The notes beneath the pieces were generated by a model, which had not been told where the DNA came from, did not search any database, and was given only the letters and a program-made list of their open reading frames with translations. A stretch of DNA of 19,306 nt from Deinococcales bacterium (GTDB lineage: Bacteria > Deinococcota > Deinococci > Deinococcales > JAAFIG01): contig JANNVX010000112.1 in the NCBI GenBank assembly GCA_031414595.1, positions 1 to 19,306 on the forward strand, written 5' to 3'. How positions within the stretch are numbered: the first letter of the stretch is position 1; the number at the start of each line of letters is the position of its first letter. Shown piece after piece: positions 1 through 19,214 of this stretch. A program made the position numbers and the translations under genes.

Positions 1-193
1 ATATCTCAATAGTATTCAAATGCGGTGAATACGTAGGTAAGAAAAATAAGTGCAAGCCTCGTTCTTCCCAGTATTCTCGTCGTTCCTGAACTGCTTTACA
101 AGTATGCACTCGAGCATTATCAAGTACCACCACAGTGACTCATTTTAAGTCCCTAGAAAAATTCTCGAGTTGTTCAATCACAAATTCACTATT
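1..193 (-). pseudogene. IS630-family (DDE_3) transposase remnant, cut off by IS982 and carrying an in-frame stop
   Basis: Not in the ORF track. Manual minus-strand translation of 193..2 gives NSEFVIEQLENFSRDLK*VTVVVLDNARVHTCKAVQERREYWEERGLHLFFLPTYSPHLNTIEI. VVLDNAxxH and FLPxYSPxLNxIE are hallmark IS630/Tc1 motifs. In-frame TGA at 142-140. Runs off the window start. Confidence 0.88.
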
Positions 194-1180
194 AACGTCA
201 ATTGTGGATAAGCAAACACCAAAAAGCGTTCTCCTATAAGCTGTTGTTAGCGCAAAAGCAAAAGGAGAACGCCATGAGTTTACTCGAATTATTCTGTTTA
301 CTCGATGATTATTGTCAAAATCTCAAAATCACCCTACCAGTCCAACCCTTGGGAACAGGAAAAAAGACCAGAAACCGAGCAACCCGACTGACGGATAGCG
401 AAATCATGACGATTCTGATTCATTTCCATCAATCAGACTACCGCAAATTTAAGCATTACTACTGTCGTCATGTCCAAGTCGTCTTAGCAAGTGAATTTCC
501 TAAAACCTGTGATTACCACCGTTTTGTGGCACTCATCAAACGCTATTTACTGCCACTATTAGGCTACTTATACTCGAGATTTGGGAATTGTGAAGGGGTC
601 AGTATTGTGGATAGCACTGCGCTAAAAGTCTGTCATAATCGTCGAATAGACAGTCACCGAGTCTTTGCGGGTCTGGCTGCTCGAGGTAAGAACTCGATGG
701 GTTGGTTTTTTGGATTTAAATTGCATATCGCTTTGAACACCGAAGGGGAATTGGTGGGTATGCACCTTGGTAAAGGCAACCAAGATGACCGTGATGGTCT
801 GCGTGAAATTTTGGCTAATCCATTCAAACAACTATTTGGTAAGTTAATTGCTGACCGAGGCTATATTGGCAAAGCATTTTTCGAGGAATTGTACAAGAAA
901 TATGGGGTTGAAGTGGTGATTGGGTTGAAGAAAAATATGAAAAGTATGTTGCCTCAGACGAGTGAGAGCATTTTTTTTCTACGAAAACGGGGTATTATTG
1001 AGACGATTATTGATCAACTCAAAAACATCATGCAGATTGAACACACAAGGCATCGGAGTTTCACTAGCTTCTCGGTTAATTTGATTTGCGGCTTGATTGC
1101 TTACTGTTTACAGCCTAACAAACCAAGTTTACTGTCTGGGAAAGATGTTTTGCTTACTCCTTAACCACAACTGACGTTAA
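192..1180 (+). mobile_element. IS982-family insertion sequence (about 990 bp)
   Basis: Terminal inverted repeats TTAACGTCAATTGTGGATAAG (192-212) and CTTAACCACAACTGACGTTAA (1160-1180), 2 mismatches in 21. They enclose a single transposase whose stop lies inside the right IR. No flanking direct repeat seen. Confidence 0.9.
274..1164 (+). CDS. IS982-family DDE transposase
   Basis: Motifs IVDSTALKVC, GWFFGFKLH, LIADRGY, KRGIIETIIDQLK, IEHTRHRS. Start moved to ATG 274 because of the AAGGAG RBS at about 262-267 (296 aa). Confidence 0.93.
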   Translation: MSLLELFCLLDDYCQNLKITLPVQPLGTGKKTRNRATRLTDSEIMTILIHFHQSDYRKFKHYYCRHVQVVLASEFPKTCDYHRFVALIKRYLLPLLGYLYSRFGNCEGVSIVDSTALKVCHNRRIDSHRVFAGLAARGKNSMGWFFGFKLHIALNTEGELVGMHLGKGNQDDRDGLREILANPFKQLFGKLIADRGYIGKAFFEELYKKYGVEVVIGLKKNMKSMLPQTSESIFFLRKRGIIETIIDQLKNIMQIEHTRHRSFTSFSVNLICGLIAYCLQPNKPSLLSGKDVLLTP

Positions 1181-1188
1181 ATAATGAA

Positions 1189-1479
1189 TTACATTGCTCC
1201 CGCTTCGTAAATTCTTATGCTGGTAATGATTGGGCATTCTTTTGCGATTCTTTCCGCTTCTTCAAGGCTATCTGCGCTGATGATGCAATAACCAGTTAAT
1301 GATTCTTTACCTAGTGGTAATTCTTTTGTTCCAGCACTTGAGATTTCTCTTCCGTTTCCCAAAGGGCTGCCGCCGTCTACTAATTTGTCGGCTATGGATG
1401 CAAACCATTTGCCCCATGCTTTCTGGACTTCTTGGGTAGGCGTTTCATATCCGTAAGTTAAGAACACAAATTTTTTCAT
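1189..1479 (-). CDS. YciI/DGPF-family protein
   Basis: 96 aa with MKKFVFL, W..W, LVDGGSPL, GYCIISADSLEEAERIAKECP and a terminal IRIYE strand, the YCII-related pattern. GGAG RBS upstream; follows the ArsR gene. Confidence 0.75.
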   Translation of the reverse strand: MKKFVFLTYGYETPTQEVQKAWGKWFASIADKLVDGGSPLGNGREISSAGTKELPLGKESLTGYCIISADSLEEAERIAKECPIITSIRIYEAGAM

Positions 1480-1488
1480 TTTTTCTCC

Positions 1489-1839
1489 TTAATTCTTGGT
1501 GTGATCGTTGCTTAAGTAAGCAGCATAGTTTTCTAGGGTTTCTTGGTTGCTGCCCCAGTATGTGTGATACTGCCCTAACCAATTTTGTGCGCTCTGCAAT
1601 CCTTCTCGGTTGAGTGCAAGAAAATTGATTCGTCCAATCTTTTTGCGGATTATCATGCCTCCTTTCTCAAGGACTTTTAGGTGTTTGTGAATTGCAGGCA
1701 GCGAGAGTCCTTCCCTAAAAGCCAGTTGGCTTATGGAGCAAGGGTGCAGACTTAAGATGTAAATGATTGCTCGTCTGTGTTTGTTCGCTAGAGCCTCAAA
1801 AGCGTTGTCTAAGTCTGACAGAGTTTGATCTTTCGTCAT
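1489..1839 (-). CDS. ArsR/SmtB-family winged-helix transcriptional regulator
   Basis: LDNAFEALANKHRRAII...SLPAISKHL-like (SLPAIHKHLKVLEKGGMI) and a C-terminal W..Y...W tail typical of the ArsR subgroup linked to SRPBCC/YciI genes. Confidence 0.9.
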   Translation of the reverse strand: MTKDQTLSDLDNAFEALANKHRRAIIYILSLHPCSISQLAFREGLSLPAIHKHLKVLEKGGMIIRKKIGRINFLALNREGLQSAQNWLGQYHTYWGSNQETLENYAAYLSNDHTKN

Positions 1840-1840
1840 A

Positions 1841-1864
1841 ACACTTAACCTATTGGTTAAGTGT
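1841..1864. promoter_or_regulatory. Perfect palindromic operator, probable ArsR autoregulatory site
   Basis: ACACTTAACC-TATT-GGTTAAGTGT (10-bp perfect arms), 1 nt from the ArsR start codon and overlapping the -10 box. Confidence 0.8.
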
Positions 1865-1888
1865 AGCGTTGAAGTTAAACTTTGTCAA
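1860..1888 (-). promoter_or_regulatory. Sigma70-type promoter of the ArsR-YciI operon
   Basis: Minus strand TTGACA (1888-1883), 17 nt spacer, TACACT (1865-1860). Confidence 0.8.
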
Positions 1889-1890
1889 GT

Positions 1891-1931
1891 AGAAAATTGC
1901 TCGAGCTTGCGCCTTGGCTTCTTCTCGAGCA
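1891..1931 (-). terminator. Possible terminator hairpin built from two CTCGAG copies
   Basis: TGCTCGAG (1898-1905) and CTCGAGCA (1924-1931) form an 8-bp stem just after the 1934 stop codon, followed on the minus strand by ATTTTCT. Confidence 0.4.
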
Positions 1932-1933
1932 GT

Positions 1934-3136
1934 TTATTTTTTAGGGCAGTTTTGTTTTGGAAAAGTCAGTGAGTCGTAAGGTTCTGGCAGCACTTCTTTG
2001 CTAGAACGCCAGACCACTTGGAATTGTCCGTTGCGTTCAACTCTACCAATGTAAACTCTTTGTTTAACCGAACCGTTTGGTTCAATGCGTATTCTGCCCA
2101 GTGGTGAATCCCTAAACTCGAGTCCAATCAGGGCTTGTCTGACCAGTAGAGGGTCAAAACTGCCTGCTTTTTCAACTGCTCGTCGCCAAAAAAAGGCGTT
2201 GGCGTAGGCATGTGCCATTGGGTCACTGATGACACTATTTGCACCATAACGTTGACGGTAGCTTTCTATAAATAAGCGGTTGGCTGGGTTCTCGAGGCTT
2301 TGAAAGTAATTCCAAGTGGCGTAATGACCAAGAAATAAATTTGCACCAATGTTTTGTAGTTCTGGTTCGGCAATTGAAAAATTGATGGTTGGCAGTAAGC
2401 GCGGGTCTAGGTTGGCTTGGCGGTATGCCTTAAAAAAGGCTAGGTTGCTATCGCCATTGATGGTGTTGATGATGATTTGTGGACGACTGCTTTGGATTTT
2501 TTTGACCACTGCACTAAAGTTTTTGTTGCCGAGCGGCACATAATCTTCTCCAACCAAAGTAGCAGCTTTGTCAGCAATATGACGTTTAAGAATTTTATTG
2601 ATGGTGCGCGGATAAACATAATCTGAACCAAGCAAATAAATCCGTTTGAAACCCTGCTCGAGCGCCCAGTTTAGGGCAGGTATGGCTTGTTGGTTAGGCT
2701 GAGCGCCACTGTAAATAATGTTTGGGCTGCATTCATTGCCTTCAAATTGAACTGGGTAAAACAACAAGCTCTGATTTTTTTCGATAATCGGTAGTACGGC
2801 TTTGCGACTGGCACTGGTCCAACCACCAAAAATCGCTGAGACTTTATCAGTGATTATTAGTTTTTTGGCTTTCTCGGCATAGCGATCCCAATTAGAAGCG
2901 CCATCTTCTTTGACAATAATGATTTGTTGCCCCAACACACCGCCACTTTGGTTGATTTCCTCGAGAGCAAGTTCGGTGGCGTTGGCGACACTAACTTCTG
3001 AAATTGCCATTGTGCCACTTAACGAATGCAAAATGCCGACACTGATGGGATTGCCTTGGGCTAGGCTTGGTTTAATCAGTGTCAGGCTCAAGACGCAAAG
3101 ACCAAGCAGCGCTAAACCAAGGGCAAATCGTTTCAT
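1934..3136 (-). CDS. UrtA/FmdD-like urea or short-chain amide substrate-binding protein (Peripla_BP_5), orphan
   Basis: Signal peptide, then VGILHSLSGTMAISE, FGGWTSASRKAVLP, LFYPVQFEG, GAQPNQQ, GSDYVYPR, NTINGDSN, all characteristic of UrtA. No permease or ATPase genes adjacent. Confidence 0.88.
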   Translation of the reverse strand: MKRFALGLALLGLCVLSLTLIKPSLAQGNPISVGILHSLSGTMAISEVSVANATELALEEINQSGGVLGQQIIIVKEDGASNWDRYAEKAKKLIITDKVSAIFGGWTSASRKAVLPIIEKNQSLLFYPVQFEGNECSPNIIYSGAQPNQQAIPALNWALEQGFKRIYLLGSDYVYPRTINKILKRHIADKAATLVGEDYVPLGNKNFSAVVKKIQSSRPQIIINTINGDSNLAFFKAYRQANLDPRLLPTINFSIAEPELQNIGANLFLGHYATWNYFQSLENPANRLFIESYRQRYGANSVISDPMAHAYANAFFWRRAVEKAGSFDPLLVRQALIGLEFRDSPLGRIRIEPNGSVKQRVYIGRVERNGQFQVVWRSSKEVLPEPYDSLTFPKQNCPKK

Positions 3137-3142
3137 TGGTTT

Positions 3143-3148
3143 AGTCTA
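3143..3148 (-). promoter_or_regulatory. -10 box of a probable leaderless transcript
   Basis: TAGACT, 6 nt, ATG (3136); no Shine-Dalgarno. Confidence 0.6.
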
Positions 3149-3208
3149 GCGCATCTGGTGTTACTAGGACGAGTTTTTTGAGTATGATGAACATAAGAGG
3201 TAAATTCT

Positions 3209-5389
3209 ATGATGCAAGCCACAGGTAAATTTATGGCAGCCATTTGGATCAAGGTTCGCACCACTTTTGATAATGCGCCGTTGCTCGGTAAGTTATTGAT
3301 GCTATCAGCTGTGGTTTTATTGCCACTTTTGCTGGTCTCGACATGGTTACTGTTTGGTGTCGTTGGTTCACAAATTGAACGTGGAGCGGGCGCTCGAGTG
3401 CGTCAAGCGGCTTTTAGTGCTGCCAATATCCTCAGTCGTAATTTGAATGAACGCTACAGCGATGTGCTGAGTTTTTCGACCTCGAGATTTGCGCGGAACA
3501 TGGATGCCGAAGAACAAAGCTCTTGGATGAACACTTTAATTAAAAACCAAAGCCCAGTTTATCGCCTAATGCTGGTAGCGGACACCAACGGTAAAGTCAT
3601 TGCCACTTCAAGTGTCAACGCCCAAGGCAACGCCCTTGATACCAGCCAGATTATCGGCTCGAGTGTGGCAGCCGAACAATGGTTTATTTCTTGTCGGCAA
3701 GGTTTAGTACCAGAGCGAACCGCTTTTGCTACTCCGGCTGGGGATGATGAAATTCTTAAAAAACTCGAGCCTAATGTCAGTCCGATGAGCTTAGGGTTTT
3801 CTGCGCCAATTCGTGGTTTTGGTGGTCAAATTATTGGGGTTTGGCACACCTTACTAAACTGGGATGAAATCAATCGAATTTTAAGCAATGCCCAAGCCGA
3901 AGCCAAAAACAATGGGTATGCCTCGGTTCGGTACTTGATTACCGATGATGTCGGGCGTTTACTCAGCGCTCCTAATCCAGATTTGGTCTTCAAAACCAAT
4001 TTACGTAATTTTGTGTCCTACAAAGCATCTCGAGCTAACCAAGCAGGCTATATGCAAGACCGTGATTTTGGCGATGTGGCACTAAGTCCTAAGGCGGCTG
4101 GTACAGTTGGCTGGTTTGCGGCGGGTAAAGATACCAACTTTAAGGGCTTGGGTTGGACGATACTTGCCAGTCAATCGGCGGCAGAAATCAATGCTGCCCA
4201 ATTGGGTTTACTAACCCCACTATTGTTGTTGTTGCTGCTGTTGCTTTTGGGGGCATTATTGGTGGCTTGGCTGATTTCACGCTATGTAGTTGGACAAATT
4301 TTGAGCTTAAAATCCCATGCGGCGGCTCTTTCCGAAGGAAATTTAGCCCAAGATATGCAGGCTGCCAGCACCGATGAAATAGGCGCATTGCGGGCTTCGT
4401 TTCAGAACATGACCTTGTATCAACGTCAAATGGCAAGGGTTGCCAGTGCCATTTCCCAAGGCGACTTAACAAGTAGTATTGAAGCCAAATCCGAACAGGA
4501 TGAACTTGGCATGGCTTTTGCCGAGATGACCCGCAAATTACGCGAGGTACTAAAACAAGTCCTGACCTCGAGCCAAGCCGTTTCGAGTGCCAGCAAACAA
4601 ATTTTAGCGGCTTGTGTACAACAAAGCAGTGGGATTTCACAACAAAGTGCCGCTGTCACCCAGACCACTGCCACGGTTGCCGAAGTCAGTCAGTCGTCAA
4701 ATCATGCGCTTGAACTGACCCAGCACATCACAAGTAGCGCCAATGGTGTGGCTCGAGTTGCCACCGCAGGCATCGAGGCTGCCCGTACCGCCGATGATGG
4801 AATGCAGCAAATTCGGGTTCGGGTTGGCGAAATTTCTGAGCAAATTTTAGGTTTATCGCAACAAACCCAAAGCATTGGCGAAATTATTGCCACTGTCTCT
4901 GACATTGCCGACCAAAGCAATTTACTCGCCTTAAACGCCGCCATCGAAGCCTCCCGAGCCGGCGAACACGGACGTGGTTTTTCGGTGGTTGCCCAAGAAA
5001 TCAGGCATTTAGCCGAACGCAGCAAAGACGCAACCCAACAGGTGCGAAATTTACTTGGGCAGATTCAACGTGCCACCAAAAGTGCAGTCATGGCTTCCGA
5101 GCAAGGCTCAAAAGTTGCCGAAAGCGGCGCACAGCACCTAGCCCACACTTTAGAGACCATCGAAGCCCTTGGCACAGCGATTCGTGAATCGGCAGAACAA
5201 ACCCAAATGATTCAGATTACGGTGCAACAAAACAACATTGGTATGAGTCAAATCGAAAAAGCCATCCACAGCATTAACGACACCACCCAAACCTCCTTGT
5301 ATGCCACCCAACAAACCCAGAGTATCGCCCAACAACTCGAGGGCTTAGCCGATAAGCTAAACGCGGTTAGCGTTGGCTTTAAGACTTAA
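3209..5389 (+). CDS. Methyl-accepting chemotaxis protein (TM-Cache-like sensor-TM-HAMP-MCP signal domain)
   Basis: Two hydrophobic helices flank an approx. 280-aa extracytoplasmic domain; HAMP-like segments ([24 protein letters not shown]); signalling hairpin [46 protein letters not shown] (3183-3188) and GAGG RBS upstream. Confidence 0.93.
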
Positions 5390-5390
5390 A

Positions 5391-5453
5391 TAGCTACTAG
5401 CTACTAGCTTTTAGTTTTTAGTTTTTAGCTAAAAACCAGAAGCTAAAGGCTCA
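5391..5453. repeat. Heptamer tandem repeats that fold back on themselves between convergent genes (probable bidirectional terminator)
   Basis: TAGCTAC TAGCTAC TAGCTTT TAGTTTT TAGTTTT TAG followed by inverted units CTAAAAA CCAGAAG CTAAAGG. AGCTTTTAGTTTTTAG can pair with CTAAAAACCAGAAGCT. Confidence 0.6.
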
Positions 5454-7010
5454 TTACATTACCCCAGTTGCCTCGAGTTTGCCATCTTTGACTTCTATAA
5501 TCACCAATGGACGGTTCTGAATTGCCCCTGCCTTAAACTGCACTGGGCTGGTCACACCTGGAGCGGGTTTGCTCGAGAAACCATCTAAGGCTTTTTTGAC
5601 ATTGATTCGGGTTTGGCTGTTAGATCGTTTAATTGCCTCGAGTAACGCCCGTGTTGCGTCATATGCCTGCATTGCTCGAGCGTTGGGTGTCCCGCCGCCG
5701 TATCGTCTTTGGAAGGCTTTGACAAATTGGGTTGTGTTGCCAATCGTGCTGGTGGCATGAAAAAACGAGAGCATGGTTAAACCTTCTACAGCTTTTCCAG
5801 CCGCCAGTAATTCTTGGCTGTAAGCAGCACTGCCGGTTAGCATCGGCAGTTTTACCCCTGCACTTGCTAAAGCTGTGGCAAGTCGGGCGCAATCGGCGGC
5901 TGTGCCAGATAAAAAGACCGCATCTGGACGTGGGTCATCTTGGAAGACATCAAAATCGGCGGGTAAACCCTTGGTTGGGAATTCAATTGGCACAGTGCTG
6001 ATAGATAAACTGGCAGCATCTTGAATAAAGGCATCAGCTAGGCTTTTACTGTAGGCATCTTTGGGGTCAAAATAAACTGGGATTCGGACATAGCCTTTTC
6101 TTTGTGCAATTTTAACCAGATTCTTGCCTTGAATACTGCTCGGCACGGCTAACCGATACGTAAAACCGCCTTTGTTGGACAAACGGTCATCGGTTGCAGC
6201 CGGCGCAATATGCACCAGACTTTGGGCATTATAAATATCGGCAGCCGCCACCGAAGCACTCGAGTTGACTGGTCCAATCACACCCAGCACCTCGGACAGC
6301 GAAGCCAAACTTGAGGCGGCTTGAACCGCTAAAGAACGATCATTTTGGTCGTTGCGAATTTCTACAATCACCCGTTTATTACCAAGGCTAGGCTGGCTAA
6401 ATTCTTGAACCGCCATGTTCACACCCTGTAAAATCGCTTCGCCCTGCTGCACACTCGAGCCACTGGTAGGCACACTCAAACCAATCGTGATGGCTTTAGC
6501 ACCAAGTTGCTTGGTCAGGGCATTGCTGCGAACCAAACCAATTAAGGCATCGGTGGGTCTCGAGTTCAACCACGCATCGGCTTTCTCGAGGGCATCAGCA
6601 TACGTCCCAGAATTATAGACATTAACAATATCGGCGCGTTCGGGTCGCAAATTGGCTGCCACTTGAACATCTGGGGTGGTTAGACTGGCTTCTGGATAAC
6701 CTGTGGTGGCTGGTGTGGTGGTAGTGACTGGTGGCGTGGTGACTGGTGGCGTGGTGGGCGTAGTGACTGGTGGTGTGGTTGGTGTAGTGACAGGCGGCGT
6801 GGTAGTGACTGGGGGTGTGGGTGTAGTGACAGGCGGTGTGGTTGGTGTAGTGACAGGCGGCGTGACGACCGGCGGAGTATTCACTGGGGCTTGGCAAGCA
6901 CTCGGAACAGGTAAGCCGGGCAGTTGAATACCACAATTTTGATGTTGTTGCCAACCAAAATAAGCTGCTAGAGCAATCACAATAATTGGAATTAAATTCT
7001 GGGGTTTCAT
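5454..7010 (-). CDS. Membrane-anchored LivJ/LivK-like (Peripla_BP_6) ligand-binding protein with Pro/Thr-rich stalk
   Basis: N-terminal TM helix, (PPVTTPTT)n linker, then ITIGLSVPTSG, VLGVIGPVNSS, APAATDDRLS, AYSKSLADAF, AYDATRALLEAI of type I periplasmic binding proteins. Confidence 0.82.
   Translation of the reverse strand: MKPQNLIPIIVIALAAYFGWQQHQNCGIQLPGLPVPSACQAPVNTPPVVTPPVTTPTTPPVTTPTPPVTTTPPVTTPTTPPVTTPTTPPVTTPPVTTTTPATTGYPEASLTTPDVQVAANLRPERADIVNVYNSGTYADALEKADAWLNSRPTDALIGLVRSNALTKQLGAKAITIGLSVPTSGSSVQQGEAILQGVNMAVQEFSQPSLGNKRVIVEIRNDQNDRSLAVQAASSLASLSEVLGVIGPVNSSASVAAADIYNAQSLVHIAPAATDDRLSNKGGFTYRLAVPSSIQGKNLVKIAQRKGYVRIPVYFDPKDAYSKSLADAFIQDAASLSISTVPIEFPTKGLPADFDVFQDDPRPDAVFLSGTAADCARLATALASAGVKLPMLTGSAAYSQELLAAGKAVEGLTMLSFFHATSTIGNTTQFVKAFQRRYGGGTPNARAMQAYDATRALLEAIKRSNSQTRINVKKALDGFSSKPAPGVTSPVQFKAGAIQNRPLVIIEVKDGKLEATGVM
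6703..6885 (-). repeat. Coding Pro/Thr tandem repeats (about 24-nt PPVTTPTT units)
   Basis: Repeated GGTGTAGTGACAGGCGG / GTAGTGACTGGTGG units on the + strand. Confidence 0.8.
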
Positions 7011-7016
7011 CTGCTT

Positions 7017-7022
7017 AGTCTA
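7017..7022 (-). promoter_or_regulatory. -10 box of a probable leaderless transcript
   Basis: TAGACT, 6 nt, ATG (7010); directly preceded by a CTCGAG (7023-7028). Confidence 0.6.
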
Positions 7023-7073
7023 CTCGAGAATATGCGACTTGGGCTATCTACAATTTTGTTAGCAACAACCCAC

Positions 7074-7949
7074 TCAGGCTCGAGGCTCGGAGTCATTGCG
7101 ATTTGTGCCTTCGGTAATCAGTTGTACCGTCACAGGTGGGTTAGCAGCAGGCGCTTGCCAGTTCAATTCGTCAAGGCGGTTTCGCAAGTGCTTGCGCCAT
7201 TCCCTTGACAGCGCCCATTGTTCTTTGGGTTGAACTTTCATCAGCACCCGAATCGTGGTTTGTGCGCCAAGGGCTTGAATGCCCAGTACCTCGGGAGGCT
7301 CGAGAAATTTGTTGATTAGGTCTGGTTGGCTCGAGAATTCTGTAACCAAGCGTTGCAGTTCACTCATCGCTTCTTCTATTGGCACGGTGTTTGGAACTTC
7401 AACATCAGCCACAATTCGCGCCCAGTCTTTAGATAACACACTAACGGTTTTGATTTCGCCGTTTGGAATCACATGGGCTGTGCCTTCTAAATCGCGTAGC
7501 ACCGTGACCCGAAGATTGAGGCTTTCGACACTTCCAGCCAGTACATGTGCCGAAGCTGCATTGACTTTTATGACATCACCCACGCCGTACTGATCCTCGA
7601 GCAGAATAAAAAATCCGTTCAGTACATCCCTGACCATGCTCTGTGCGCCAAAACTGACCGCTAAACCAAGAATCGAAACCCCTGCCAGTAACGCTGTGAC
7701 ATTGACACCAAGTTCAGACAGCACCGCCACCAGAGTTAAAACCAGCACCAGCACACGTAAACTCGAGGTCAGGACAACCCGCAGGGTTTCGGTGCGGACA
7801 TTGCGTCTCGAGAATTCTCTTGGAGTGGTGACAGCCGCCGCAAAACGGTTAATCAACCAGAGCAAAAAAGCCGCCAGTAAAAGTGTCAGCACCACACTTG
7901 GGGCGGCATCTAGGATACCCTCGAGTTTTTTAAGCCAGCGTTCAATCAT
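7074..7949 (-). CDS. Small-conductance mechanosensitive channel, MscS family (YkuT/YbiO-like)
   Basis: Three TM helices, GLAVSFGAQSMVRDVLNGFFILLEDQYGVGDVI, GSVESLNLRVTVLRDLEGTAHVIPNGEI. Overlaps the plsX stop by 8 nt. Confidence 0.92.
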   Translation of the reverse strand: MIERWLKKLEGILDAAPSVVLTLLLAAFLLWLINRFAAAVTTPREFSRRNVRTETLRVVLTSSLRVLVLVLTLVAVLSELGVNVTALLAGVSILGLAVSFGAQSMVRDVLNGFFILLEDQYGVGDVIKVNAASAHVLAGSVESLNLRVTVLRDLEGTAHVIPNGEIKTVSVLSKDWARIVADVEVPNTVPIEEAMSELQRLVTEFSSQPDLINKFLEPPEVLGIQALGAQTTIRVLMKVQPKEQWALSREWRKHLRNRLDELNWQAPAANPPVTVQLITEGTNRNDSEPRA

Positions 7950-11846: not shown

Positions 11847-11858
11847 AGGCGAAAGGAT

Positions 11859-11891
11859 AAAGGTAGAGTGCAAACCGCCCCCTACCTTTTT
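11859..11891 (+). terminator. Probable intrinsic terminator after minC, possibly REP-derived
   Basis: AAAGGTAG...CTACCTTT stem ending in a T run. The reverse strand reads GTAGGGGGCGGTTTGCACTCTAC, resembling the GTAGGGGCGG REP head. Confidence 0.55.
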
Positions 11892-12077
11892 CGATTAGTT
11901 TTTGATGAGACTAAAATTGGCTTTTGTGACGAGATTCCTTGACTGGGGTGTTGAAGATGAGGCTTTGATGCTCACCTTTATCATGGAAAATAGCGGTTTT
12001 CTCTAAGCTACTGGCAAAAATCTTCTCGAGCCAACCAAACATTTTTCACCAGTGCAAACTGGTTTCTTGGGGTTCAA

Positions 12078-14261
12078 ATGAAAAAACTAATTGCAACACT
12101 GCTCGGAGTTATACTTGCCAGTGGATTGGCTGTCGCAGCCATCACTGTAACAGTCAAAGCAGGTGATTCGCTTGGCTCTATCGCAACACGCAATGACACC
12201 ACAGTTGCCGAATTACAACGGCTTAATGGGCTTAAAAGCATCAACATTCGGGTCGGGCAAGTGTTGCGTATCCCCCAACCAAGCAGCCTTACCGTGCGCT
12301 CAGGCGACAGCTTAGAAAGCATTGCTGCCCGTTACGGGGTCAGTGTTGCGGCTTTACGGGCTGCCAACGGCATCTCGGGCGACAGAATCCGTGTCGGGCA
12401 AGAACTAAAACTGCCAAATGGTAACACCCCAGTCCCCAGCAGTAGCACCTCAGTCTCGAGTAGTGTTGGTCGTACAAATACCGTGACAGTGCAGAGTGGC
12501 GATACCCTCGGGGAAATCGCAGAGCGCAACAATCTCAGTACCGCCGATTTACGTGCCGCTAATGGATTAAATAGTGATTCAATTCGGATTGGGCAAGTGC
12601 TGAAATTGCCCACCAAACAAATTGCCGCAGCTAAACCAACCGCAAGTACCAATTCTGTGACGGTGCAGAGCGGTGACACCCTTGGTGAAATTGCCAAGCG
12701 CAACAACACCAGCATCGAAGCCCTACAAGCTGTTAATAATTTAAGCGGTAATGCCATTCGGGTTGGACAAGTGCTGAAATTACCAAAAACAAACCAGTCC
12801 GCCCCAACCCCAACGGCTCGAGTCTCGAGTGGCAGTGTGACTATACAAGGCTCTAGTGTGACCGTTCAAGCTGGCGACAGTCTCGAGAAGATTGCCAAAC
12901 GCAACAATATCAGCGTGGTGGCATTGCGTGCCGCCAACAACCTAAGCGGTGATGCGATTCGTGTTGGTGATACCCTGCGCTTACCCTCGAGTACAAGCAC
13001 ACAAAAACCTGTAGTCGCTACAAAACCTAGTGCAGCTAAACCCAAGCCAAGTGTAGTTGCTACGAAGCCTAAGCCAAGTGTAGCCGTGGTTAAGCCCAAA
13101 CCTAGCCCTGTTGCTGTTAAGCCCTCAGCTAAGCCTAGTATCAAGCCACCTGTCTCGAGTGGCAGTATCAAGCCGACAGTCTCGAGTGGCAGTATCAAGC
13201 CGGCAGTCTCGAGTAAACCCAGTGTGACTGCAAATAAACCCAGTATCAAACCAGTTGTCTCGAGTAAGCCTAGTGTGACTGCAAATAAACCAGTTATCTC
13301 GAGTAAACCTGTGGTTGCAGCTAAACCCGTAACCCCGACAAAACCGCTCGCTCCCAATACTCGAGTGATTGCCCCACCACCCAATTTACCAACCGCGACA
13401 GGCAGAACCGTTACCATTCAAGCACCCCAAGCCGCCCCTAAACCCCAAAATGTGGCAGCTAAACCAGTTACAAGCCCAGCCTCACTACCACCGATTCAAA
13501 TTGTGACTGCACCAAAACCAGCCGCACCTGCCAATGTTGCCCGGCAACCCGCAGTTGCACCCAAACCAAGCCCAGTGGTGGCAGTTAAACCGAGCCCAGT
13601 TATCGCCGCTAAACCAGACAACATGCCCAGTACATTGGGGTTTAACGAACCGCTCGAGATTCCAGTCAGCGAAGATAGCCCCCTGATAGACCCAGCCCTC
13701 GAGTCGCCATTTTTTGATGCCACTGCCCCTGAAAGTAAACCAACTGCCCCAAGTGACCTTGCGCCTGAAGACATCGAAATTATCATCCCAGACAACCAAA
13801 GTGCGGCTTCGGTCAAACCTACCCCAGATTCACCAACCTACAGCCGCTCCGAAAAATTGCTCTGGCCCTTGTCCGGTACGATGACCAGTCGTTTTGGCTG
13901 GCGCAGTTTACGCGGTAATCGCTACCATACGGGTATTGACTTGGCAGCACCAACAGGCACACGGGTCTACGCCGCATTATCTGGCAAAGTCGAGTTTGCG
14001 GGTTGGAATCGCCAAGGATATGGCTACTTAATCATTATTCGTGGCTGGGATAACCGCCGTTATTACTACGGTCACAACTCGAGACTGCAAGTTAAAAAAG
14101 GACAATGGGTGCGCCAAGGACAAATCATTTCCAGAGTTGGCAGCACAGGATTTTCGACAGGACCACATTTGCACTTTGAAATCCGAGTTGGCAACAGCGC
14201 CAGAAATCCATTGGCGTACTTACCGCGCAGTCGTTTGGCATTGGCATCTTCTAAGCGGTAA
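12078..14261 (+). CDS. Secreted peptidoglycan endopeptidase: 5 LysM domains, long P/K/S/V/A linker, M23 domain
   Basis: Signal peptide; five xTVxxGDxLxxIAxR...L...N.L....IRxGQxLxLP units; Zn ligands HTGID and HLH intact. Confidence 0.93.
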   Translation: MKKLIATLLGVILASGLAVAAITVTVKAGDSLGSIATRNDTTVAELQRLNGLKSINIRVGQVLRIPQPSSLTVRSGDSLESIAARYGVSVAALRAANGISGDRIRVGQELKLPNGNTPVPSSSTSVSSSVGRTNTVTVQSGDTLGEIAERNNLSTADLRAANGLNSDSIRIGQVLKLPTKQIAAAKPTASTNSVTVQSGDTLGEIAKRNNTSIEALQAVNNLSGNAIRVGQVLKLPKTNQSAPTPTARVSSGSVTIQGSSVTVQAGDSLEKIAKRNNISVVALRAANNLSGDAIRVGDTLRLPSSTSTQKPVVATKPSAAKPKPSVVATKPKPSVAVVKPKPSPVAVKPSAKPSIKPPVSSGSIKPTVSSGSIKPAVSSKPSVTANKPSIKPVVSSKPSVTANKPVISSKPVVAAKPVTPTKPLAPNTRVIAPPPNLPTATGRTVTIQAPQAAPKPQNVAAKPVTSPASLPPIQIVTAPKPAAPANVARQPAVAPKPSPVVAVKPSPVIAAKPDNMPSTLGFNEPLEIPVSEDSPLIDPALESPFFDATAPESKPTAPSDLAPEDIEIIIPDNQSAASVKPTPDSPTYSRSEKLLWPLSGTMTSRFGWRSLRGNRYHTGIDLAAPTGTRVYAALSGKVEFAGWNRQGYGYLIIIRGWDNRRYYYGHNSRLQVKKGQWVRQGQIISRVGSTGFSTGPHLHFEIRVGNSARNPLAYLPRSRLALASSKR
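13137..13310 (+). repeat. Coding tandem repeats in the LysM-M23 linker (27-nt units plus longer variants)
   Basis: AGTATCAAGCCnnnnGTCTCGAGT units start at 13137, 13164 and 13191; AGTGTGACTGCAAATAAACC is duplicated further on. Confidence 0.8.
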
Positions 14262-14264
14262 AAG

Positions 14265-14690
14265 ATGAGTTTACTTGAACAGATGTACAAAGAAATTCTG
14301 CTCGAGCATCAAAAACGCCCACGCAATCTAGGGCGGCTCGAGCATAAAACCCATGCCGAAAGAGGGCATAACCCAGCTTGTGGTGATAAACTGGAACTTC
14401 AATTACGGCTCGAAAATAACACCATTGCCGAAGTGCGCTTTCTTGGACAAGGCTGTACTATTTCCCAAGCCAGCGCCAGTTTAATGACTGTGGCAATTAC
14501 AGGAAAAACCATAACCGAAGCCCTAGAGATTGCCAATGCCTTTGGCATCATGCTGCGAACAGGTCAGCCAGACTCGAGCCTAGGTGATTTGAATGCCCTT
14601 GTGGGGGTCGCCAAACTGCACACCCGAGTCAAATGTGCCACCCTTGCTTGGCAGACGCTCGAGTTGGCACTGGGTGTGCCAGAAATCTAA
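14265..14690 (+). CDS. sufU: SUF-system NifU-family Fe-S assembly protein SufU
   Basis: LEQMYKEILLEHQKRPRN, NPACGD, GCTISQASAS, RVKCATLAW; carries the SufU-type insert and lacks the IscU LPPVK motif. Confidence 0.93.
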   Translation: MSLLEQMYKEILLEHQKRPRNLGRLEHKTHAERGHNPACGDKLELQLRLENNTIAEVRFLGQGCTISQASASLMTVAITGKTITEALEIANAFGIMLRTGQPDSSLGDLNALVGVAKLHTRVKCATLAWQTLELALGVPEI

Positions 14691-14740
14691 GTTTTTGGCA
14701 TAATTTTAGAACAACGACTTGCTGCGAACAGGAGAACATC

Positions 14741-15772
14741 ATGAAAAAAACCATTTTTATCATCTTGGGTTGTATAGCAGTGACGGCTGCTGGTACAGTC
14801 GCCCAAACAACCCAAACCCTACGCAGTTTAGCTGATACCAAAGGCATCTATATGGGTGCTGCTGTTACGCCGATTTTTTATGACAGCACCGAACCAGATT
14901 ATACCAAGGTTCTCAGCCGCGAATACAACATGATTGTGGCAGAAAATATTATGAAGTGGTCGGCGCTTTCTTCTGGGCGTGGCAAATTTAGTTTTAATGC
15001 GGCTGACGGCATGATTGCCTTTGCCCAAAAACACCAACAAGCTGTGCGTGGACACACCTTGGTCTGGCACGAATCGTTGCCGTCGTGGGTTTTAACGATT
15101 AAAGACAAAGATGAAATGCGAAACGTCCTCAAAACCCATGTGCAGACTGTTGCCAAGTATTTCAAAGGTAAGGTCTTTGCTTGGGATGTCTTAAACGAAG
15201 CAATTCTCGAGGATGGAAGTTACCGCAAAACACCGTTTTATAATTTACTCGGTGCAGAATACATTGCTGATGTGTTTAAGTGGGCAAGAGAAGCCGACCC
15301 AAGCGCTAAACTTTTTTACAACGATTACAACACCGATGGAATCAATCCAAAATCCACGGCGGTCTACAATATGGTCAAAGCCCTAAAAGCCAGTGGTGTG
15401 CCAATAGACGGGGTTGGTTTCCAAGCTCATGTAGATAGCAACTTTAATGTGGTGCAGCAGCGTACCTTAGAAAATTACAAGCGTTTCCGTGACCTTGGTT
15501 TTGAGGTTCAATTAACCGAAGTGGATGTTACTTTGTCTGGCAATGCTCCTCGAATTGAGCGTTTAGCTGCCCAAGCCAAAGTCTATAAGGATTTATTGGC
15601 AACCTGTTTAGCCGTGAAATGCTCGGCTTTTATCACTTGGGGGTTTACCGATGCGTTCTCTTGGCGGGCGGCTGCTGCGCCATTGCCTTTTGATTCGGAT
15701 TATCAACCCAAACCTGCCTATTTTGCTCTGCTCGAAGCCTTAAAAGCACCTGCTATCACTCCACCAAAATGA
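14741..15772 (+). CDS. Secreted GH10 endo-1,4-beta-xylanase
   Basis: Start moved to ATG 14741 (CAGGAG RBS, signal peptide MKKTIFIILGC). Motifs AENIMKW, RGHTLVWH, WDVLNE (acid/base), LFYNDYN, IDGVGFQAH, LTEVDV (nucleophile), TWGFTDAFSW, KPAY. Confidence 0.93.
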   Translation: MKKTIFIILGCIAVTAAGTVAQTTQTLRSLADTKGIYMGAAVTPIFYDSTEPDYTKVLSREYNMIVAENIMKWSALSSGRGKFSFNAADGMIAFAQKHQQAVRGHTLVWHESLPSWVLTIKDKDEMRNVLKTHVQTVAKYFKGKVFAWDVLNEAILEDGSYRKTPFYNLLGAEYIADVFKWAREADPSAKLFYNDYNTDGINPKSTAVYNMVKALKASGVPIDGVGFQAHVDSNFNVVQQRTLENYKRFRDLGFEVQLTEVDVTLSGNAPRIERLAAQAKVYKDLLATCLAVKCSAFITWGFTDAFSWRAAAAPLPFDSDYQPKPAYFALLEALKAPAITPPK

Positions 15773-15825
15773 TTTTCCGACAGTTTAGTGACACTTGATA
15801 CCAACCTTTATTCAATACTCGAGGT

Positions 15826-16890
15826 GTGAGCGAGCGAGCTATTTTGTTGGTCAATCTGGGTTCGCCAGATTCAACCTCCATTCCAGATGTTAAAAAGTAC
15901 CTTGATGAATTTTTGATGGATCCTCATGTACTGGACTTTCCGTATTGGCTGCGCTCTTTTTTGGTGCGTGGTGTGATTCTCAATGTCCGTCCAAAAAAAT
16001 CAGCTGCCGCCTATCAAGAAATTTGGTGGGACGAAGGCAGCCCTCTGGTGGTGATTTCTAAGCGGGTGCAAGCTGCCCTACAAGCCATCTCGAGTATCCC
16101 CGTGGCATTAGGAATGCGCTACCAAAATCCAAGTATCGAATCGGCATTACGCGCTCTGCTCGAGCAGAACCCAGATTTACAAGAGCTGCTGCTTGTGCCG
16201 CTCTATCCGCAGTATGCGATGGCAACCACCGAAACCGTGGCGCGGGAAACCCGTGAAAGTTTAGCTCGGCTTGGGGTGAATTTAGACTTAAAAATCTTAG
16301 CCCCTTTTTATGACCAACCTGAGTACATCAGCGCTCTAGCCGAAGTCACCAAACCGTACCTCGAGACAGGTTTTGACAAGGTGCTTTTTTCGTATCATGG
16401 TATCCCGAAGCGCCATGTTAAAAAGTCCGACTGTACTGGTCAGCATTGCTTAAGCACCAATTGTTGCCATGTGGATAGCCCAGCCCATCAATACTGCTAT
16501 AAACACCAAGCCGTTCGCACCACTGAAAGCCTTGCCACGCAACTCGGCATCACCAATTATGATATTTCTTTTCAAAGCCGTTTGGGTGGCGGCTGGCTGA
16601 CTCCATTCACCGATAAAATGCTTGAACAGTATCCCAAGCAAGGCGTTAAGCGTTTAGCCATCCTCTGTCCGGCTTTTGTTTCGGATTGCTTAGAAACCTT
16701 AGAAGAAATTGCCCAAGAAGGACGCGAAACCTTTCTGAAGGCTGGCGGCGAGCAATTTACTTATATCCCCTGCTTAAATGACCACGCAGCTTGGATTGTG
16801 GCACTTCACAAGCTGACCGAACAAGCATGGAGCGCTTCGCCGTTTCTCGAGACCAGTTCTATTCCAAATTTAATCCAAGGAAAATTATGA
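15826..16890 (+). CDS. hemH: Ferrochelatase with internal Cys-rich insertion
   Basis: ILLVNLGSPD, PLYPQYAMATT, FSYHGIP, FQSRLG, WLTPFT, AFVSDCLETLEEI, IPCLND. Confidence 0.96.
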   Translation: MSERAILLVNLGSPDSTSIPDVKKYLDEFLMDPHVLDFPYWLRSFLVRGVILNVRPKKSAAAYQEIWWDEGSPLVVISKRVQAALQAISSIPVALGMRYQNPSIESALRALLEQNPDLQELLLVPLYPQYAMATTETVARETRESLARLGVNLDLKILAPFYDQPEYISALAEVTKPYLETGFDKVLFSYHGIPKRHVKKSDCTGQHCLSTNCCHVDSPAHQYCYKHQAVRTTESLATQLGITNYDISFQSRLGGGWLTPFTDKMLEQYPKQGVKRLAILCPAFVSDCLETLEEIAQEGRETFLKAGGEQFTYIPCLNDHAAWIVALHKLTEQAWSASPFLETSSIPNLIQGKL

Positions 16891-17791
16891 AAATCCATCT
16901 GACTTTATTGGCAATACTGACCGCCACCGTGACTTTGGCACAAACAACCTACCCCGTGACAATCAAGCACGACGCTGGCGAAACCTCTCTGACAAGCCGC
17001 CCAGCTTGGGCGATATTCATTATGAAGAACTCTTGGCGCTTGGAGTACAGCCAGTCGGTTATGCCCACCGCTTTAGTCAGCCGCCTGTGCTGGGTGCAAA
17101 ATTCCCCAGTTTAGGGGATTTAGACAAGTACACCCAAGGGAAATTACCTGTCTACGTCGGTGATTTGTTTACGCCATCACTGGAAGCGATGCTGGCTTTA
17201 AAACCAGATTTAATTGTCTCGAGCCAAGAAAATCTTCATGGTAATTTGTCTAAAATTGCCCCGACCCTAACCTTGCAAAGCCGTTTGGCTGATTCTTGGC
17301 GCAGCAGTTTACCCGCACTCGGAAAAGCCTTTGGGCTACAGAAACGCGCCAGTGAAGTGGTTAAAAGTATCGAATCACGCTTGCGATTAAGCCGTGAAGC
17401 CTTAAAACGAATCACTAAAAAAACCCCGCGACTGACTTTGGTGATGCTCTCTGGGCAAACCGCTTTTTTTGCCTCAAACGGTTATGTGATTGGAAAAATT
17501 TTTGAGGACTTGGGTTTTAGCATCACCAACCCAAGCGGTACAAAGTTTAATGCAGTTGGTTTAGCCCCGCTTTCGCTCGAGAAAATCCCGAGTCTCGAGA
17601 CCGACAAAATTTGGGTGATAAGTAATACCGACCTTTTGCCAGACAGTGCTTTACGCATGACGCTCGAGAAATCACAGCGCGGCAAGGTTATACTTTTTAA
17701 CAACAATTTGCGTCCGTTACTCGGACCCCTATCCTTACCAAGATTCTTGGGTGAAATCCAAAGCCGCAGCTTAAATAGCTCAGGTTTTTAA
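16887..17791 (+). pseudogene. Iron-siderophore ABC substrate-binding protein (Peripla_BP_2), frameshifted near 17005
   Basis: ATG 16887 overlaps the hemH stop (ATGA) and gives signal peptide + YPVTIKHDAGETSLTSRPA. The family sequence continues in the -1 frame as LGDIHYEELLALGVQPVG...PSLEAMLALKPDLIV...LSKIAPT. The usual RIV/RVV strand between them is missing. Confidence 0.75.
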
Positions 17792-17835
17792 CCAGTCTCT
17801 TGGTGAGCGCAGCACCTCGAGTCCGTCTGGGGCAG

Positions 17836-17994
17836 TGTAATCATCAAAAACACGCCGCCTATGCCCCGTGCTTCTAAACGGTGCTTCAGCCAAAAATAAT
17901 CATCACATTGTTTTTTCCAAGTTGGGTAATGACTTGGGCTGATGTCTCGAGCCGTTTGGTGAAACAAGACTGCATCCTCGTTAAACAAATAAAA
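17836..17994 (-). pseudogene. hemF: Internal fragment of oxygen-dependent coproporphyrinogen III oxidase
   Basis: [17 protein letters not shown]...[27 protein letters not shown] matches the HemF core motif (KKWCDxYFxLxHRxExRGIGGxFFDD). FFDDY is recovered only by adding one T to the T5 run at 17846-17850. Both ends of the gene are absent. Confidence 0.85.
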
Positions 17995-18244
17995 ATTCTC
18001 GAGTCATAATTTCATTGGCTTCCAACACAGCTTCTCGGCTAACTTTTCCCGCATAGCCTTGGACAAGTTGATCTAAACTTTCACCACTGGCTAAACGTGC
18101 CAATGTACCTGTAATTTCAATGCGGGTGTACTTAAAAGTTGGTCTGCCACCACAAACACCCCTTGCCTGAACCACGTATTCACCAAGTGGACGGTACACA
18201 TACGGTTCTCCAGATATTGATTCGGTGCGAAAGTCTAACATCAC
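17981..18244 (-). CDS. DUF433-domain protein (putative antitoxin)
   Basis: [15 protein letters not shown]...[14 protein letters not shown]...VSREAVLEA, the DUF433 pattern. No cognate PIN/DUF5615 toxin follows. Confidence 0.82.
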
Positions 18245-18272
18245 TTTGGGGTACGCAGTTTAAGCCGCCGCG

Positions 18273-19214
18273 TCAAGCCCTCGAAAAGATGCTTCTAGCT
18301 GCCTCTTGCCCTTGGCGAATACAATCTGGCAAACCAATACCACGATACGAAGCCCCAGCCAAATACACGCCTTTTGGGAGAAGCGCTTCGGCTTTTGCGA
18401 CCCGCTCCAAATGCCCAACTTCAAGCACTGGAAAGTCCGACCAACGAAAAACTTGATGTGCAAGTGGTACAGCCTCGAGTTGCAGAATTTCACGCAATTC
18501 GCGTCTAATCACCTCGAGCAAAGCTGACTCGGATTGGGGCAATTTATCGGCATCAAAAAATACCCGCAGTAAACCAATTCCTTTTGGAACTCGAGAAGGC
18601 ATTTTATGACTGGTGAACAGCACCGCGCTAATGGCTCGGTTTTCGGATTTAGGAATCACGATACCACGATATGCCCTTAAAGGCTCGAGCGCAAAAGCTG
18701 GATAAGCCAGCGCAACCGTACTAAGTCCCGAATGGCGCAAAGCGTTTAAGGCAAGACTGATTTCACCCTCAAGCAACCGCGCCGCGCTTGGGACTGGACA
18801 CGCCAGAATAATAGCGTCGGCGGGCAGCACTTGCCCAAACTCAAGAAAAACCTTATTGGATTCGACTTTTGCTATTTGTGTGTTGGTGCGAATGTCTGTT
18901 CCCAAAGCACACAATTTAGTCTCGAGGGCTTCTATAAGTGCTTGCATACCAGATTGCAAAGAAACTGCACTGGACTGCTTCTTGGTTTTGCGTTTTCGCT
19001 TAAGCATTCCGCGCAATAAACTGCCATGTTCTTGCTCGAGTTGCTGCAAGACTCCAAAACTGGCTTGCAAACTCATTTCTTTGGGATTAGTATTATAAAT
19101 TCCCGCCATGACTGTACCAAAAATAGTGGCGGCTTCTTGTCCAATTCGGCGGGTCAAAAAGGCATCTAAGGATTTGTCCGTAAATAACTTCCCTATTTGG
19201 AAATGATGAAACAT
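18273..19214 (-). CDS. hemG: HemY-type protoporphyrinogen/coproporphyrinogen oxidase, lacking the N-terminal FAD-binding region (partial or pseudogene)
   Basis: DKSLDAFLTRRIG, MAGIY...MSLQASF, GMQALIEAL, ADAIILACP, VGHLERV, LAGASYRGIGLPDCIRQG. No GxGxxG motif; in-frame TAG at 19223-19221 and a REP doublet immediately upstream. Confidence 0.8.
   Translation of the reverse strand: MFHHFQIGKLFTDKSLDAFLTRRIGQEAATIFGTVMAGIYNTNPKEMSLQASFGVLQQLEQEHGSLLRGMLKRKRKTKKQSSAVSLQSGMQALIEALETKLCALGTDIRTNTQIAKVESNKVFLEFGQVLPADAIILACPVPSAARLLEGEISLALNALRHSGLSTVALAYPAFALEPLRAYRGIVIPKSENRAISAVLFTSHKMPSRVPKGIGLLRVFFDADKLPQSESALLEVIRRELREILQLEAVPLAHQVFRWSDFPVLEVGHLERVAKAEALLPKGVYLAGASYRGIGLPDCIRQGQEAARSIFSRA

Follow-up and report, generated by a model that had tools for sequence, protein, structure and literature searches.

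We analyzed a stretch of 19,306 nucleotides (the window), which is contig C112 of the genome of a Deinococcales bacterium (G000; assembly GCA_031414595.1, 4.49 Mb in 120 contigs, 47.2% GC, 94% complete), for its many copies of the hexamer CTCGAG. CTCGAG is a real, hyper-iterated palindrome of exactly 6 bp, heritable in the whole family to which this genome belongs and in a second, distant lineage of the same phylum. The force that maintains it works at the level of DNA, proteins not being its target, and holds each site individually, keeping ~4-11 sites per kb; it recognizes exactly six bases, the inner four most strictly. No conserved methyltransferase of a standard family, no Vsr, and no XhoI-type enzyme is required for it, and its strength varies between lineages. 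We propose, at a probability of roughly one in three, that a CTCGAG-reading system, neither a restriction-modification pair nor a standard orphan methyltransferase, maintains the hexamer by biased transmission in uptake, recombination, or repair, and that it may have been amplified independently in two lineages of the Deinococcota and been lost, or never switched on, elsewhere.

The original prediction, made from the letters of the window, described about 90 copies of a motif behaving like the cyanobacterial highly iterated palindrome HIP1, about 20-fold enriched, in a non-cyanobacterial genome. The exact count is 90, between positions 109 and 19040 (Table 1). A uniform model lets 4.7 sites be expected, and dinucleotide-preserving shuffles of the window contain 2.12 on average (maximum 7; 0 of 200 reach 90), so that the enrichment is 19-42-fold across models and the predicted figure was of the right order. 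Sites lie in all three codon phases of the 15 open reading frames (ORFs) on which phases were assigned; the seven sites named as intergenic are indeed all found between ORFs, and both near-tandem pairs are present. The genome is not cyanobacterial, as no Photo_RC or phycobilisome match was obtained in the assembly, which is 94% complete, while a Synechococcus control matched.

The excess is not confined to the window. CTCGAG is the commonest hexamer of G000, with 23,235 copies or one per 193 bp (5.2 per kb), which corresponds to 24 times the expectation from base composition, 43 times that of an order-1 Markov model, and 67 times that of a motif-masked background (346 expected). None of the 120 contigs is without it, and those >3 kb have 2.3-5.8 sites per kb. 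Over 3,692 non-overlapping ORFs with a minimum length of 120 amino acids, which served as a crude coding set, the density is 5.16 per kb, compared with 5.32 per kb in intergenic DNA, and the coding sites are distributed over the three phases as 12,184, 3,997, and 4,272. Shuffling synonymous codons within genes (n = 5) leaves 1,919-2,017 coding sites of the 20,453 observed, a ~10-fold difference, and this null errs on the conservative side, the motif being already built into the codon usage that is shuffled. The excess thus survives both dinucleotide- and synonymous-codon-preserving shuffles.

These numbers bear on the idea that CTCGAG is a passive by-product of codon usage, or of dinucleotide or mutational bias, passed down by ancestors of high GC content that favored the codons CTC and GAG. 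Such a process would fit some data outside the family: the 3-8-fold excess of high-GC non-family relatives lies largely in the Leu-Glu phase and shrinks to 0.9-4.1-fold after synonymous shuffling, and high-GC viral contigs with 5-9 sites per kb hold about as many GAGCTC. For G000 we consider it very improbable, given the margins over synonymous shuffles and Markov backgrounds, the equal density of genes and intergenic DNA, the mere six GAGCTC in the genome, the reversed-pattern control (see below) that is 0 in every family genome, and a conservation of sites that goes beyond that of codons. An artefact of assembly or library construction, in which reads would have been joined at XhoI sites, had been named as a possible refutation and can be practically discounted: in-frame sites occupy orthologous positions across 19 or more genomes that were assembled independently, including one closed as a single contig, and the excess of Leu-Glu is a property of proteins.

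We next considered what exactly is being over-represented. The ten bases on each side of CTCGAG hold at most 0.026 bit apiece, in agreement with the claim of unconstrained flanks, and the recognition unit is therefore exactly six bases. A longer repeat hence explains the motif no better than codon bias does. Complementarity between the positions flanking the motif (+/-1) is 0.19-0.21, under the 0.25 expected, and we rejected CTCGAG as the core of hairpins or longer palindromes, since there is no arm extension and the 8-bp extensions are under-represented. Nearly all other palindromic hexamers are strongly depleted in G000: GGGCCC occurs 0 times, TGCGCA twice, CGATCG 3 times, and GAGCTC 6 times, where 778-972 copies each are expected. 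Among tetramers, GGCC is found 152 times (13,951 expected) and GATC at 0.14 of expectation. CTCGAG is therefore the lone exception in a palindrome-avoiding genome. Avoidance of GGCC is confined to the family genera g1 and g5 and was not seen in g2, g3, and g4; it is therefore a separate, younger signal.

One-mismatch variants of the motif that arise by transition or at an outer position stand at 1.35-2.0 times expectation (outer positions, 1.4-2.0), as would be expected of the decay products of a huge site pool; CTTGAG, at an observed/expected ratio (O/E) of 1.35, shows no depletion. For transversions in the inner TCGA the ratio to expectation is 0.45-0.72, and for two-mismatch variants it is 1.00. 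Sites are spaced almost as in a Poisson process, the Fano factor at 500 bp, 1 kb, and 5 kb being 0.88, 1.00, and 1.49, respectively. Spacings under 20 bp are too few, and islands poor in the motif form a tail; a description of the sites as evenly spaced, taken from the gap histogram, proved too strong. No helical or longer period was detected at the scales readable on a 120-contig assembly, the sole period being the 3 bp of the codon. Doublets of the form CTCGAGNCTCGAG, with starts 7 bp apart, number 101, compared with 17-20 pairs at spacings of 8 and 9 bp and 0 at 6 bp, a spacing that would create the avoided GAGCTC. Any base can occupy the N position of these doublets, and each has a unique context.

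The motif has left a strong imprint on coding sequences. Of all CTC codons, 52% lie inside CTCGAG, as do 47% of GAG, 31% of CGA, and 29% of TCG. Leu-Glu is the most over-represented dipeptide (O/E 2.24, compared with 0.98 for Glu-Leu), 60% of the Leu-Glu pairs in G000 being written by CTCGAG, and Ser-Ser reaches an O/E of 1.50. In PlsX, column 56 is Leu-Glu encoded by CTCGAG in 10 of 11 family genomes and Leu-Ala, Leu-Gly, Leu-Ser, or Leu-Arg in 11 of 12 outgroups; column 338 is Leu-Glu in 11/11 family genomes and mostly Val-Glu or Val-Pro in outgroups. Amino acids have thus been substituted, not inserted, at these sites. Insertion of the six-base motif as the source of Leu-Glu was rejected, since the PlsX sites are substitutions and the indels that we found are copy-number changes in the linker of a LysM/peptidase M23 gene of the window. 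This linker (~13124-13330) is a 27-bp tandem repeat with one CTCGAG per unit in the Val-Ser-Ser phase; its copy number varies among G000, G005, G001, and G003, with 27-bp and 54-bp gaps in G005 and G001 in the alignments near 13154 and 13181.

We then asked whether individual sites are held in place. Alignments covering 6-16 kb of the window with four same-genus genomes, in which phase-matched hexamers served as controls, show that CTCGAG is retained at orthologous positions beyond control hexamers and codons. The motif is conserved at 68 of 77 sites in G005 (controls 71%; binomial P 2e-4), at 60 of 73 in G001 (57%; P 5e-6), at 18 of 26 in G004 (34%; P 2e-4), and, in G003, a relative of ~76% identity, at 46 of 65 (71%, with controls at 24.5%; P 5e-15). 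Aligned intergenic sites are kept in 5/5 (G005), 3/4 (G001), 1/1 (G004), and 4/4 cases (G003), the corresponding control hexamers in 73, 38, 19, and 16%. The same codon is better preserved inside the motif than outside it in 15 of 16 comparisons, TCG in G005 being the sole exception; in the comparison with G003, conservation inside and outside the motif is 0.83 and 0.38 for CTC and 0.86 and 0.25 for GAG. Sites that have changed often differ by three or more bases, for example CTCGAG versus TTGGAA at 7330 and 9920. The latter, in the mrdA-like gene, is CTCGAG in G000 and G003 and TTGGAA in G005 and G001, a synonymous difference of three bases. With the LysM repeat excluded, 3 of the 4 sites changed in G005 and 4 of the 10 changed in G001 are of this kind, compared with 7% of changed controls. 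This hints that one-mismatch intermediates may be short-lived, the changed sites being few and some of the events shared between genomes. Several gains and losses between relatives also fall within the chemotaxis gene (variable positions 3249-5150). Because genes are as dense in the motif as intergenic DNA, orthologous sites are held, and proteins are bent toward Leu-Glu and Ser-Ser, the maintaining force has to act at the level of DNA.

The family (f1) comprises G000 and 18 relatives, of which G013 is the sole closed genome, a single contig, and the others are drafts. All 19 genomes have the trait. In ~4-kb plsX loci of G000 and 17 relatives, which span five genera and GC contents of 0.48 to 0.65, there are 3.7-8.6 sites per kb (14-32-fold); 12 loci from four other families have 0-2.8 per kb, and 80 plsX loci from distant phyla, used as a negative control, a median of 0.14. 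Samples of 20-60 kb from family genomes, including G013, contain 4.0-7.3 sites per kb with CTCGAG as the top hexamer, 5-13-fold over synonymous shuffles, with 4.8-12 per kb in intergenic DNA and a Leu-Glu O/E of 1.9-2.8. The corresponding samples from outside the family are at 0.03-2.8 per kb and 0.1-4.1-fold over synonymous shuffles.

To map the trait over the phylum, a detector for three sites within 30-base gaps (chance ~0.06 per genome) was applied to 364 genomes together with a reversed-word control. It returned 108-1026 hits in 18/18 relatives of G000 and 0 control hits, at most 1 hit in the largest genus, g7 (111 genomes), and 0-3 in g9, a genus of Thermus size (32 genomes). Genera g13, g23, g24, and g11 and much of family f2 are intermediate, with tens to ~150 hits and mostly low controls, and the intermediate levels of several other genera include an intergenic excess. 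In genus g22 the hits about equal the control and are therefore compositional. In family f3, two members of genus g19 have 431 (G149) and 578 hits (G150), a third, G151, has 0, and G032 has 124. Direct densities are 10.8 per kb in G149 and 6.6 in G150, with 7-9 per kb in the intergenic DNA of both, and 4.1 per kb in G032. In G151 there are 0.30 sites per kb, with as many in coding DNA as synonymous shuffling leads one to expect, and its Leu-Glu O/E of 1.17, within the range of motif-poor genomes, gives no clear fossil of a past motif. None of these conclusions draws on G325, an unpublished genome.

A PlsX tree places g19 with g7 in f3 (support 97/95), far from f1, which stands beside f4 and f5, and G151 is nested next to G150 (87/82, on long branches). 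The motif positions in PlsX of G149 and G150 are mostly unlike those of f1, two to three C-terminal positions being common. From the tree and these positions we read CTCGAG enrichment as a graded trait of the phylum that has probably undergone two or more amplifications; a single ancient origin followed by many losses is a possible alternative. The statement, made along with the prediction, that other Deinococcota show a similar enrichment is thus borne out.

A mechanism put forward for HIP1 couples methylation to repair, according to the part of the text of Elhai accessible to us (PMC4390886). Applied here, CTCGAG or TCGA would be a methylated signal for strand discrimination, and repair would create and restore sites, with the methyltransferases unrecognized or non-orthologous between genomes. 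We regard this as unlikely, though it has points in its favor. The bias of mismatch variants toward outer positions, against low inner transversions, resembles that of HIP1, and G000 is rich in DNA methyltransferases, with at least 25 candidates. A D12-class enzyme (PF02086) is present in 17/18 family genomes versus 4/12 others (E <= 1e-5), and G000 has a D12 methyltransferase gene followed by an ORF of the MutH family.

Against this, no methyltransferase orthologue spans the family in PF01555, PF00145, PF02384, PF07669, or PF02086, a search of standard families in which absences outside the closed G013 are soft, most genomes being incomplete assemblies. PF01555 is missing from G013 itself as well as from G002 and G014, and PF00145 from G010; the single PF00145 copy of G013 lies in a motif-poor island of low GC at third codon positions (GC3) and is 28-35% identical to the copies of G000. 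Matches to PF02384 and PF07669 have no common orthologue in the family, and a 1,108-aa protein of contig C64, considered as a universal orthologue, was found in 8/18 family genomes. The D12 enzymes likewise failed as a universal candidate, as at least three non-orthologous groups can be distinguished among them. No group is universal, and two (A and B) are lacking in G000. At E <= 1e-10 D12 is missing from the motif-rich G149, G032, G006, G008, G010, and G012, and it is present in 26 of the 111 motif-free g7 genomes. The D12 N6-adenine methyltransferase gene of G000 (C1:26904-28483; L211:6904-8480) overlaps the start of the 207-aa MutH-family ORF (PF02976, E = 1.7e-11), which among the fetched loci occurs in G000 only; with GATC at 0.14 of expectation, the pair is most simply a GATC restriction or nicking module. 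Vsr (PF03852) had no match in G000, and control genomes matched.

The original prediction had pointed to an orphan methyltransferase of the XhoI/PaeR7I or TaqI type, and this lead did not hold. The TaqI-like enzyme of G000 (L001; C89:271-1962), which resembles CamA and M.BseCI, has close homologues in 2/18 family genomes and none in G013. Sequence of this type forms part of a >1,090-aa fusion in G016 and in a Nostoc plasmid, and L001 probably corresponds to the methyltransferase portion of a type IIG fusion. The XhoI-family endonuclease (PF04555) is found in 7/364 of the phylum's genomes, all outside f1 and f3 (0/19 family and 0/3 g19 genomes). In G021, G158, G161, and G172 its gene is convergent with that of a PF01555 methyltransferase of 340-354 aa, the four copies of which are 70-79% identical to one another; this module belongs to family f4 (G021:C1:75199-76793, L387; also L384, L385, and L388). 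Homologues of the methyltransferase (56-79% identical) occur in 13/23 genomes of f4 and in 24/32 of the motif-poor g9 (62-66%), where no PF04555 endonuclease was found, and the g9 enzyme is possibly a widespread orphan or a re-partnered one. The hyper-enriched genomes lack it: 0/3 in g19, none in G032, and one weak partial match (43% over 86 residues, G008) among 18 in f1, G000 matching at the level of the shared domain only. We also rejected motif density as a filter for resident methyltransferase genes, since nearly all of them, sporadic ones included, have normal density.

Imported DNA gives a further view of the motif. A 4.7-kb island in G013 (positions 3-4684 of L171, G013:C1:4979000-4987000) has a GC3 of 0.23-0.31 in a genome of 61% GC, encodes a C5 methyltransferase and three further ORFs, and carries only 4 CTCGAG; it is recently imported DNA without the motif. 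Mobile methyltransferase genes that circulate in the lineage have a normal density. The longest CTCGAG-free stretches of G000 (2.6-4.9 kb; C46:36667-41608, C30:4279-7534, C14:37565-40431, and C96:7391-10013) are candidate recent imports.

In a first scan of IMG/VR, viral contigs with 5-9 sites per kb were set aside, as GAGCTC was about equally common in them (CTCGAG/GAGCTC of 139/92, 57/28, 276/305, 81/53, and 37/49) and their counts therefore reflect high-GC codon usage. A second scan required an AT-rich flank and gave specific contigs with GC of 0.50-0.60, in which the two words stand at 22/0 (L402), 12/0 (L467), and 13/0 (L403 and L434 each); L427 has 20 CTCGAG and 2 GAGCTC in 3.7 kb. In the latter, genes for a portal protein and for the large subunit of a terminase (E = 1.8e-45) are present, the terminase gene carrying the motif in all three phases. 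None of the five contigs is similar to G000. The motif can thus pervade genuine phage genes.

The poverty of imported DNA is also in line with selection at the level of the organism, with CTCGAG as the site of an abundant dimeric DNA protein: a nucleoid component, a Chi-like mark, or a mark of self in defense. The equal coding and intergenic densities fit such a role, a palindrome suits a dimeric binder, and the motif-rich terminase/portal module could mimic a self mark. Positional conservation adds the argument used for HIP1, whose conservation relative to control words and codons was taken to mean maintenance and not replenishment (Xu et al. 2018, PMC5861425, in the text accessible). We nevertheless judge this explanation improbable, about on a par with methylation-linked repair: per-site selection on >20,000 redundant sites should be very weak, yet the sites are strongly held, their spacing is near Poisson with no period detected beyond that of the codon, and no candidate protein was identified.

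With >20,000 sites each of negligible value, a transmission bias, or molecular drive, is the likeliest holder, and we tentatively favor a sequence-specific bias through DNA uptake or recombination. A putative factor would read double-stranded CTCGAG, most stringently its inner TCGA, and would favor motif-bearing DNA in uptake or recombination between cells of the lineage. Site-bearing alleles would then replace alleles that had lost CTCGAG, and differences in the strength of the bias among lineages could give rise to the graded pattern across the phylum. The motif-poor import in G013 and the normal density of the circulating methyltransferase genes bear on this process, and one-mismatch variants are, by a rough estimate, much scarcer than if 23,000 sites had been decaying neutrally. 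Thermus and Deinococcus are known to be naturally competent. HIP1 itself has been argued to act as an uptake or transformation signal, as far as the accessible text goes (PMC13756078).

Several observations weigh against biased transmission. We identified no protein that reads CTCGAG, whether an uptake receptor or another. The uptake sequences known so far have 9-12 nt, are non-palindromic, and occur at ~1 per kb, and a 6-bp palindrome at ~5 per kb resembles rather the target of a dimeric enzyme or regulator. Competence alone is insufficient, as the 32 genomes of g9 and the 111 of g7 are without the trait. The one-mismatch variants are not globally depleted, given the raised transition and outer-position classes, and the motif-rich phage packaging module of L427 is not predicted by a drive based purely on uptake unless the phage is temperate and recombines like host DNA. 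Finally, drive and organism-level selection cannot be told apart on sequence data alone.

Table 1. Features of the 19,306-nucleotide window, in window positions
Feature	Position	Strand	Description
CTCGAG sites, all	109..19040	.	n = 90, 4.7 per kb; 40 in Leu-Glu phase, 13 + 25 in the other phases, 12 intergenic
Intergenic CTCGAG	starts 109, 164, 1900, 1924, 7023, 9027, 11237, 12025, 15818, 17816, 17946, 17998	.	n = 12, span 109..18003; from positions relative to ORFs
Methyl-accepting chemotaxis protein gene	3209..5389	+	PF00015 and PF00672; CTCGAG in several phases
plsX	7942..8988	-	PF02504; CTCGAG at 7987, 8462, 8818, 8826; marker gene across 28 genomes
Near-tandem CTCGAG pair in plsX	8818..8831	.	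starts 8818/8826, 8 bp apart
mrdA-like PBP2 gene	9326..11170	+	PF00905 and PF03717; CTCGAG sites in Leu-Glu phase
LysM x5 / peptidase M23 gene	12078..14261	+	PF01476 and PF01551
CTCGAGNCTCGAG doublet in LysM/M23 gene	12817..12829	.	starts 12817/12824, 7 bp apart; one of 101 in the genome

The window contains some putative mobile elements in addition. A DDE transposase ORF is located at 202-1164. Between plsX and mrdA, positions 9091-9299 hold a dispersed repeat of ~210 bp. G000 has >10 copies of it, 85-95% identical, and genomes of the same genus have many more, so that it looks like a family of miniature inverted-repeat transposable elements. Copies of the final ~140 bp (19166-19306), 99-100% identical, lie at the ends of many G000 contigs, one of which is the 2.1-kb C89 with the gene of the TaqI-like methyltransferase. 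These ~140 bp probably represent the terminus of an insertion sequence that is present in multiple copies and at which the assembly breaks.

No published description of CTCGAG enrichment was found in the literature (open-access full text; supplements not covered). New here are the phylum map with its reversed-word control, the second hyper-enriched lineage with its contrast within one genus, the evidence for independent amplification, the tests of site and codon conservation, and the systematic negative result on methyltransferases, among them the XhoI-linked enzyme of the phylum itself. This negative result means either that the link to methylation, regarded as central for HIP1, is not general or that it is carried here by an unrecognized enzyme. 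If our proposal is true, CTCGAG would make a second system of the HIP type, one not tied to a methyltransferase, and the gene responsible could be found by presence and absence (G149 and G150 versus G151, and the family). In practice, CTCGAG density is a sharp marker of resident versus imported DNA in motif-rich genomes, and cloning DNA of such genomes with XhoI is hazardous.

Among known systems, XhoI/PaeR7I restriction-modification shares the recognition sequence CTCGAG. Restriction sites are normally avoided; CTCGAG is enriched 24-67-fold, the cognate endonuclease is absent from the 19 family genomes, and the methyltransferase has no real homologue there. In Escherichia coli, Dcm/Vsr repair is a sequence-specific process that produces a modest excess of CCWGG, a methylated site resembling a palindrome; it requires Vsr and a C5 methyltransferase, and it depletes the T-variant. 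G000 differs in having no Vsr and no conserved C5 methyltransferase, and in its CTTGAG count above expectation. Chi is an over-represented short word that marks self DNA for recombination, but it is asymmetric, strand-skewed, and far sparser, whereas CTCGAG is palindromic and far denser. The DNA uptake sequences of Neisseria (DUS) and the uptake signal sequences of Pasteurellaceae (USS) come closer, as lineage-specific abundant words that occupy coding and non-coding DNA and permissive protein positions and are poor in foreign DNA. Their spread is thought to be due to an uptake-biased molecular drive, and uptake specificity has been shown experimentally. They are, in contrast to a 6-bp palindrome at 5.2 per kb, asymmetric, 9-12 nt long, and present at ~1 per kb.

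The closest likeness is to HIP1 (GCGATCGC) and the alternate HIPs, also short GC-rich palindromes, over-represented tens of times in all frames and in intergenic DNA, conserved at orthologous positions beyond codons, and scarce in imported DNA. The HIP1-like behavior originally predicted for CTCGAG, with sites in all phases and between genes, uninformative flanks, and an excess beyond codon and dinucleotide bias, is thus what we observe. To our knowledge, HIP1 has gone unexplained for three decades, in part owing to its confinement to one phylum, in which it is nearly universal. Going by the accessible part of Elhai 2015 (PMC4390886), one-mismatch variants of HIP1 are biased to outer positions, as are those of CTCGAG, HIP sites occur at ~1 per kb, compared with ~5 per kb for CTCGAG, and a HIP is accompanied by a cognate methyltransferase wherever it is frequent. 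CTCGAG departs from this last rule, because no methyltransferase tracks it. It further differs from HIP1 in its length of 6 and not 8 bp, its sequence (CGATCG has 3 sites in G000), and its phylum, and in a measurable distortion of the proteome (Leu-Glu 2.2-fold); no quasi-periodicity was detected at the scales readable on 120 contigs. Unlike HIP1, it comes in graded lineages, from depleted to hyper-enriched, with two apparently independent amplifications and a contrast within one genus, which makes the responsible gene directly testable. CTCGAG is thus a denser counterpart of HIP1 in an unrelated phylum, strong enough to reshape codons and amino acids.

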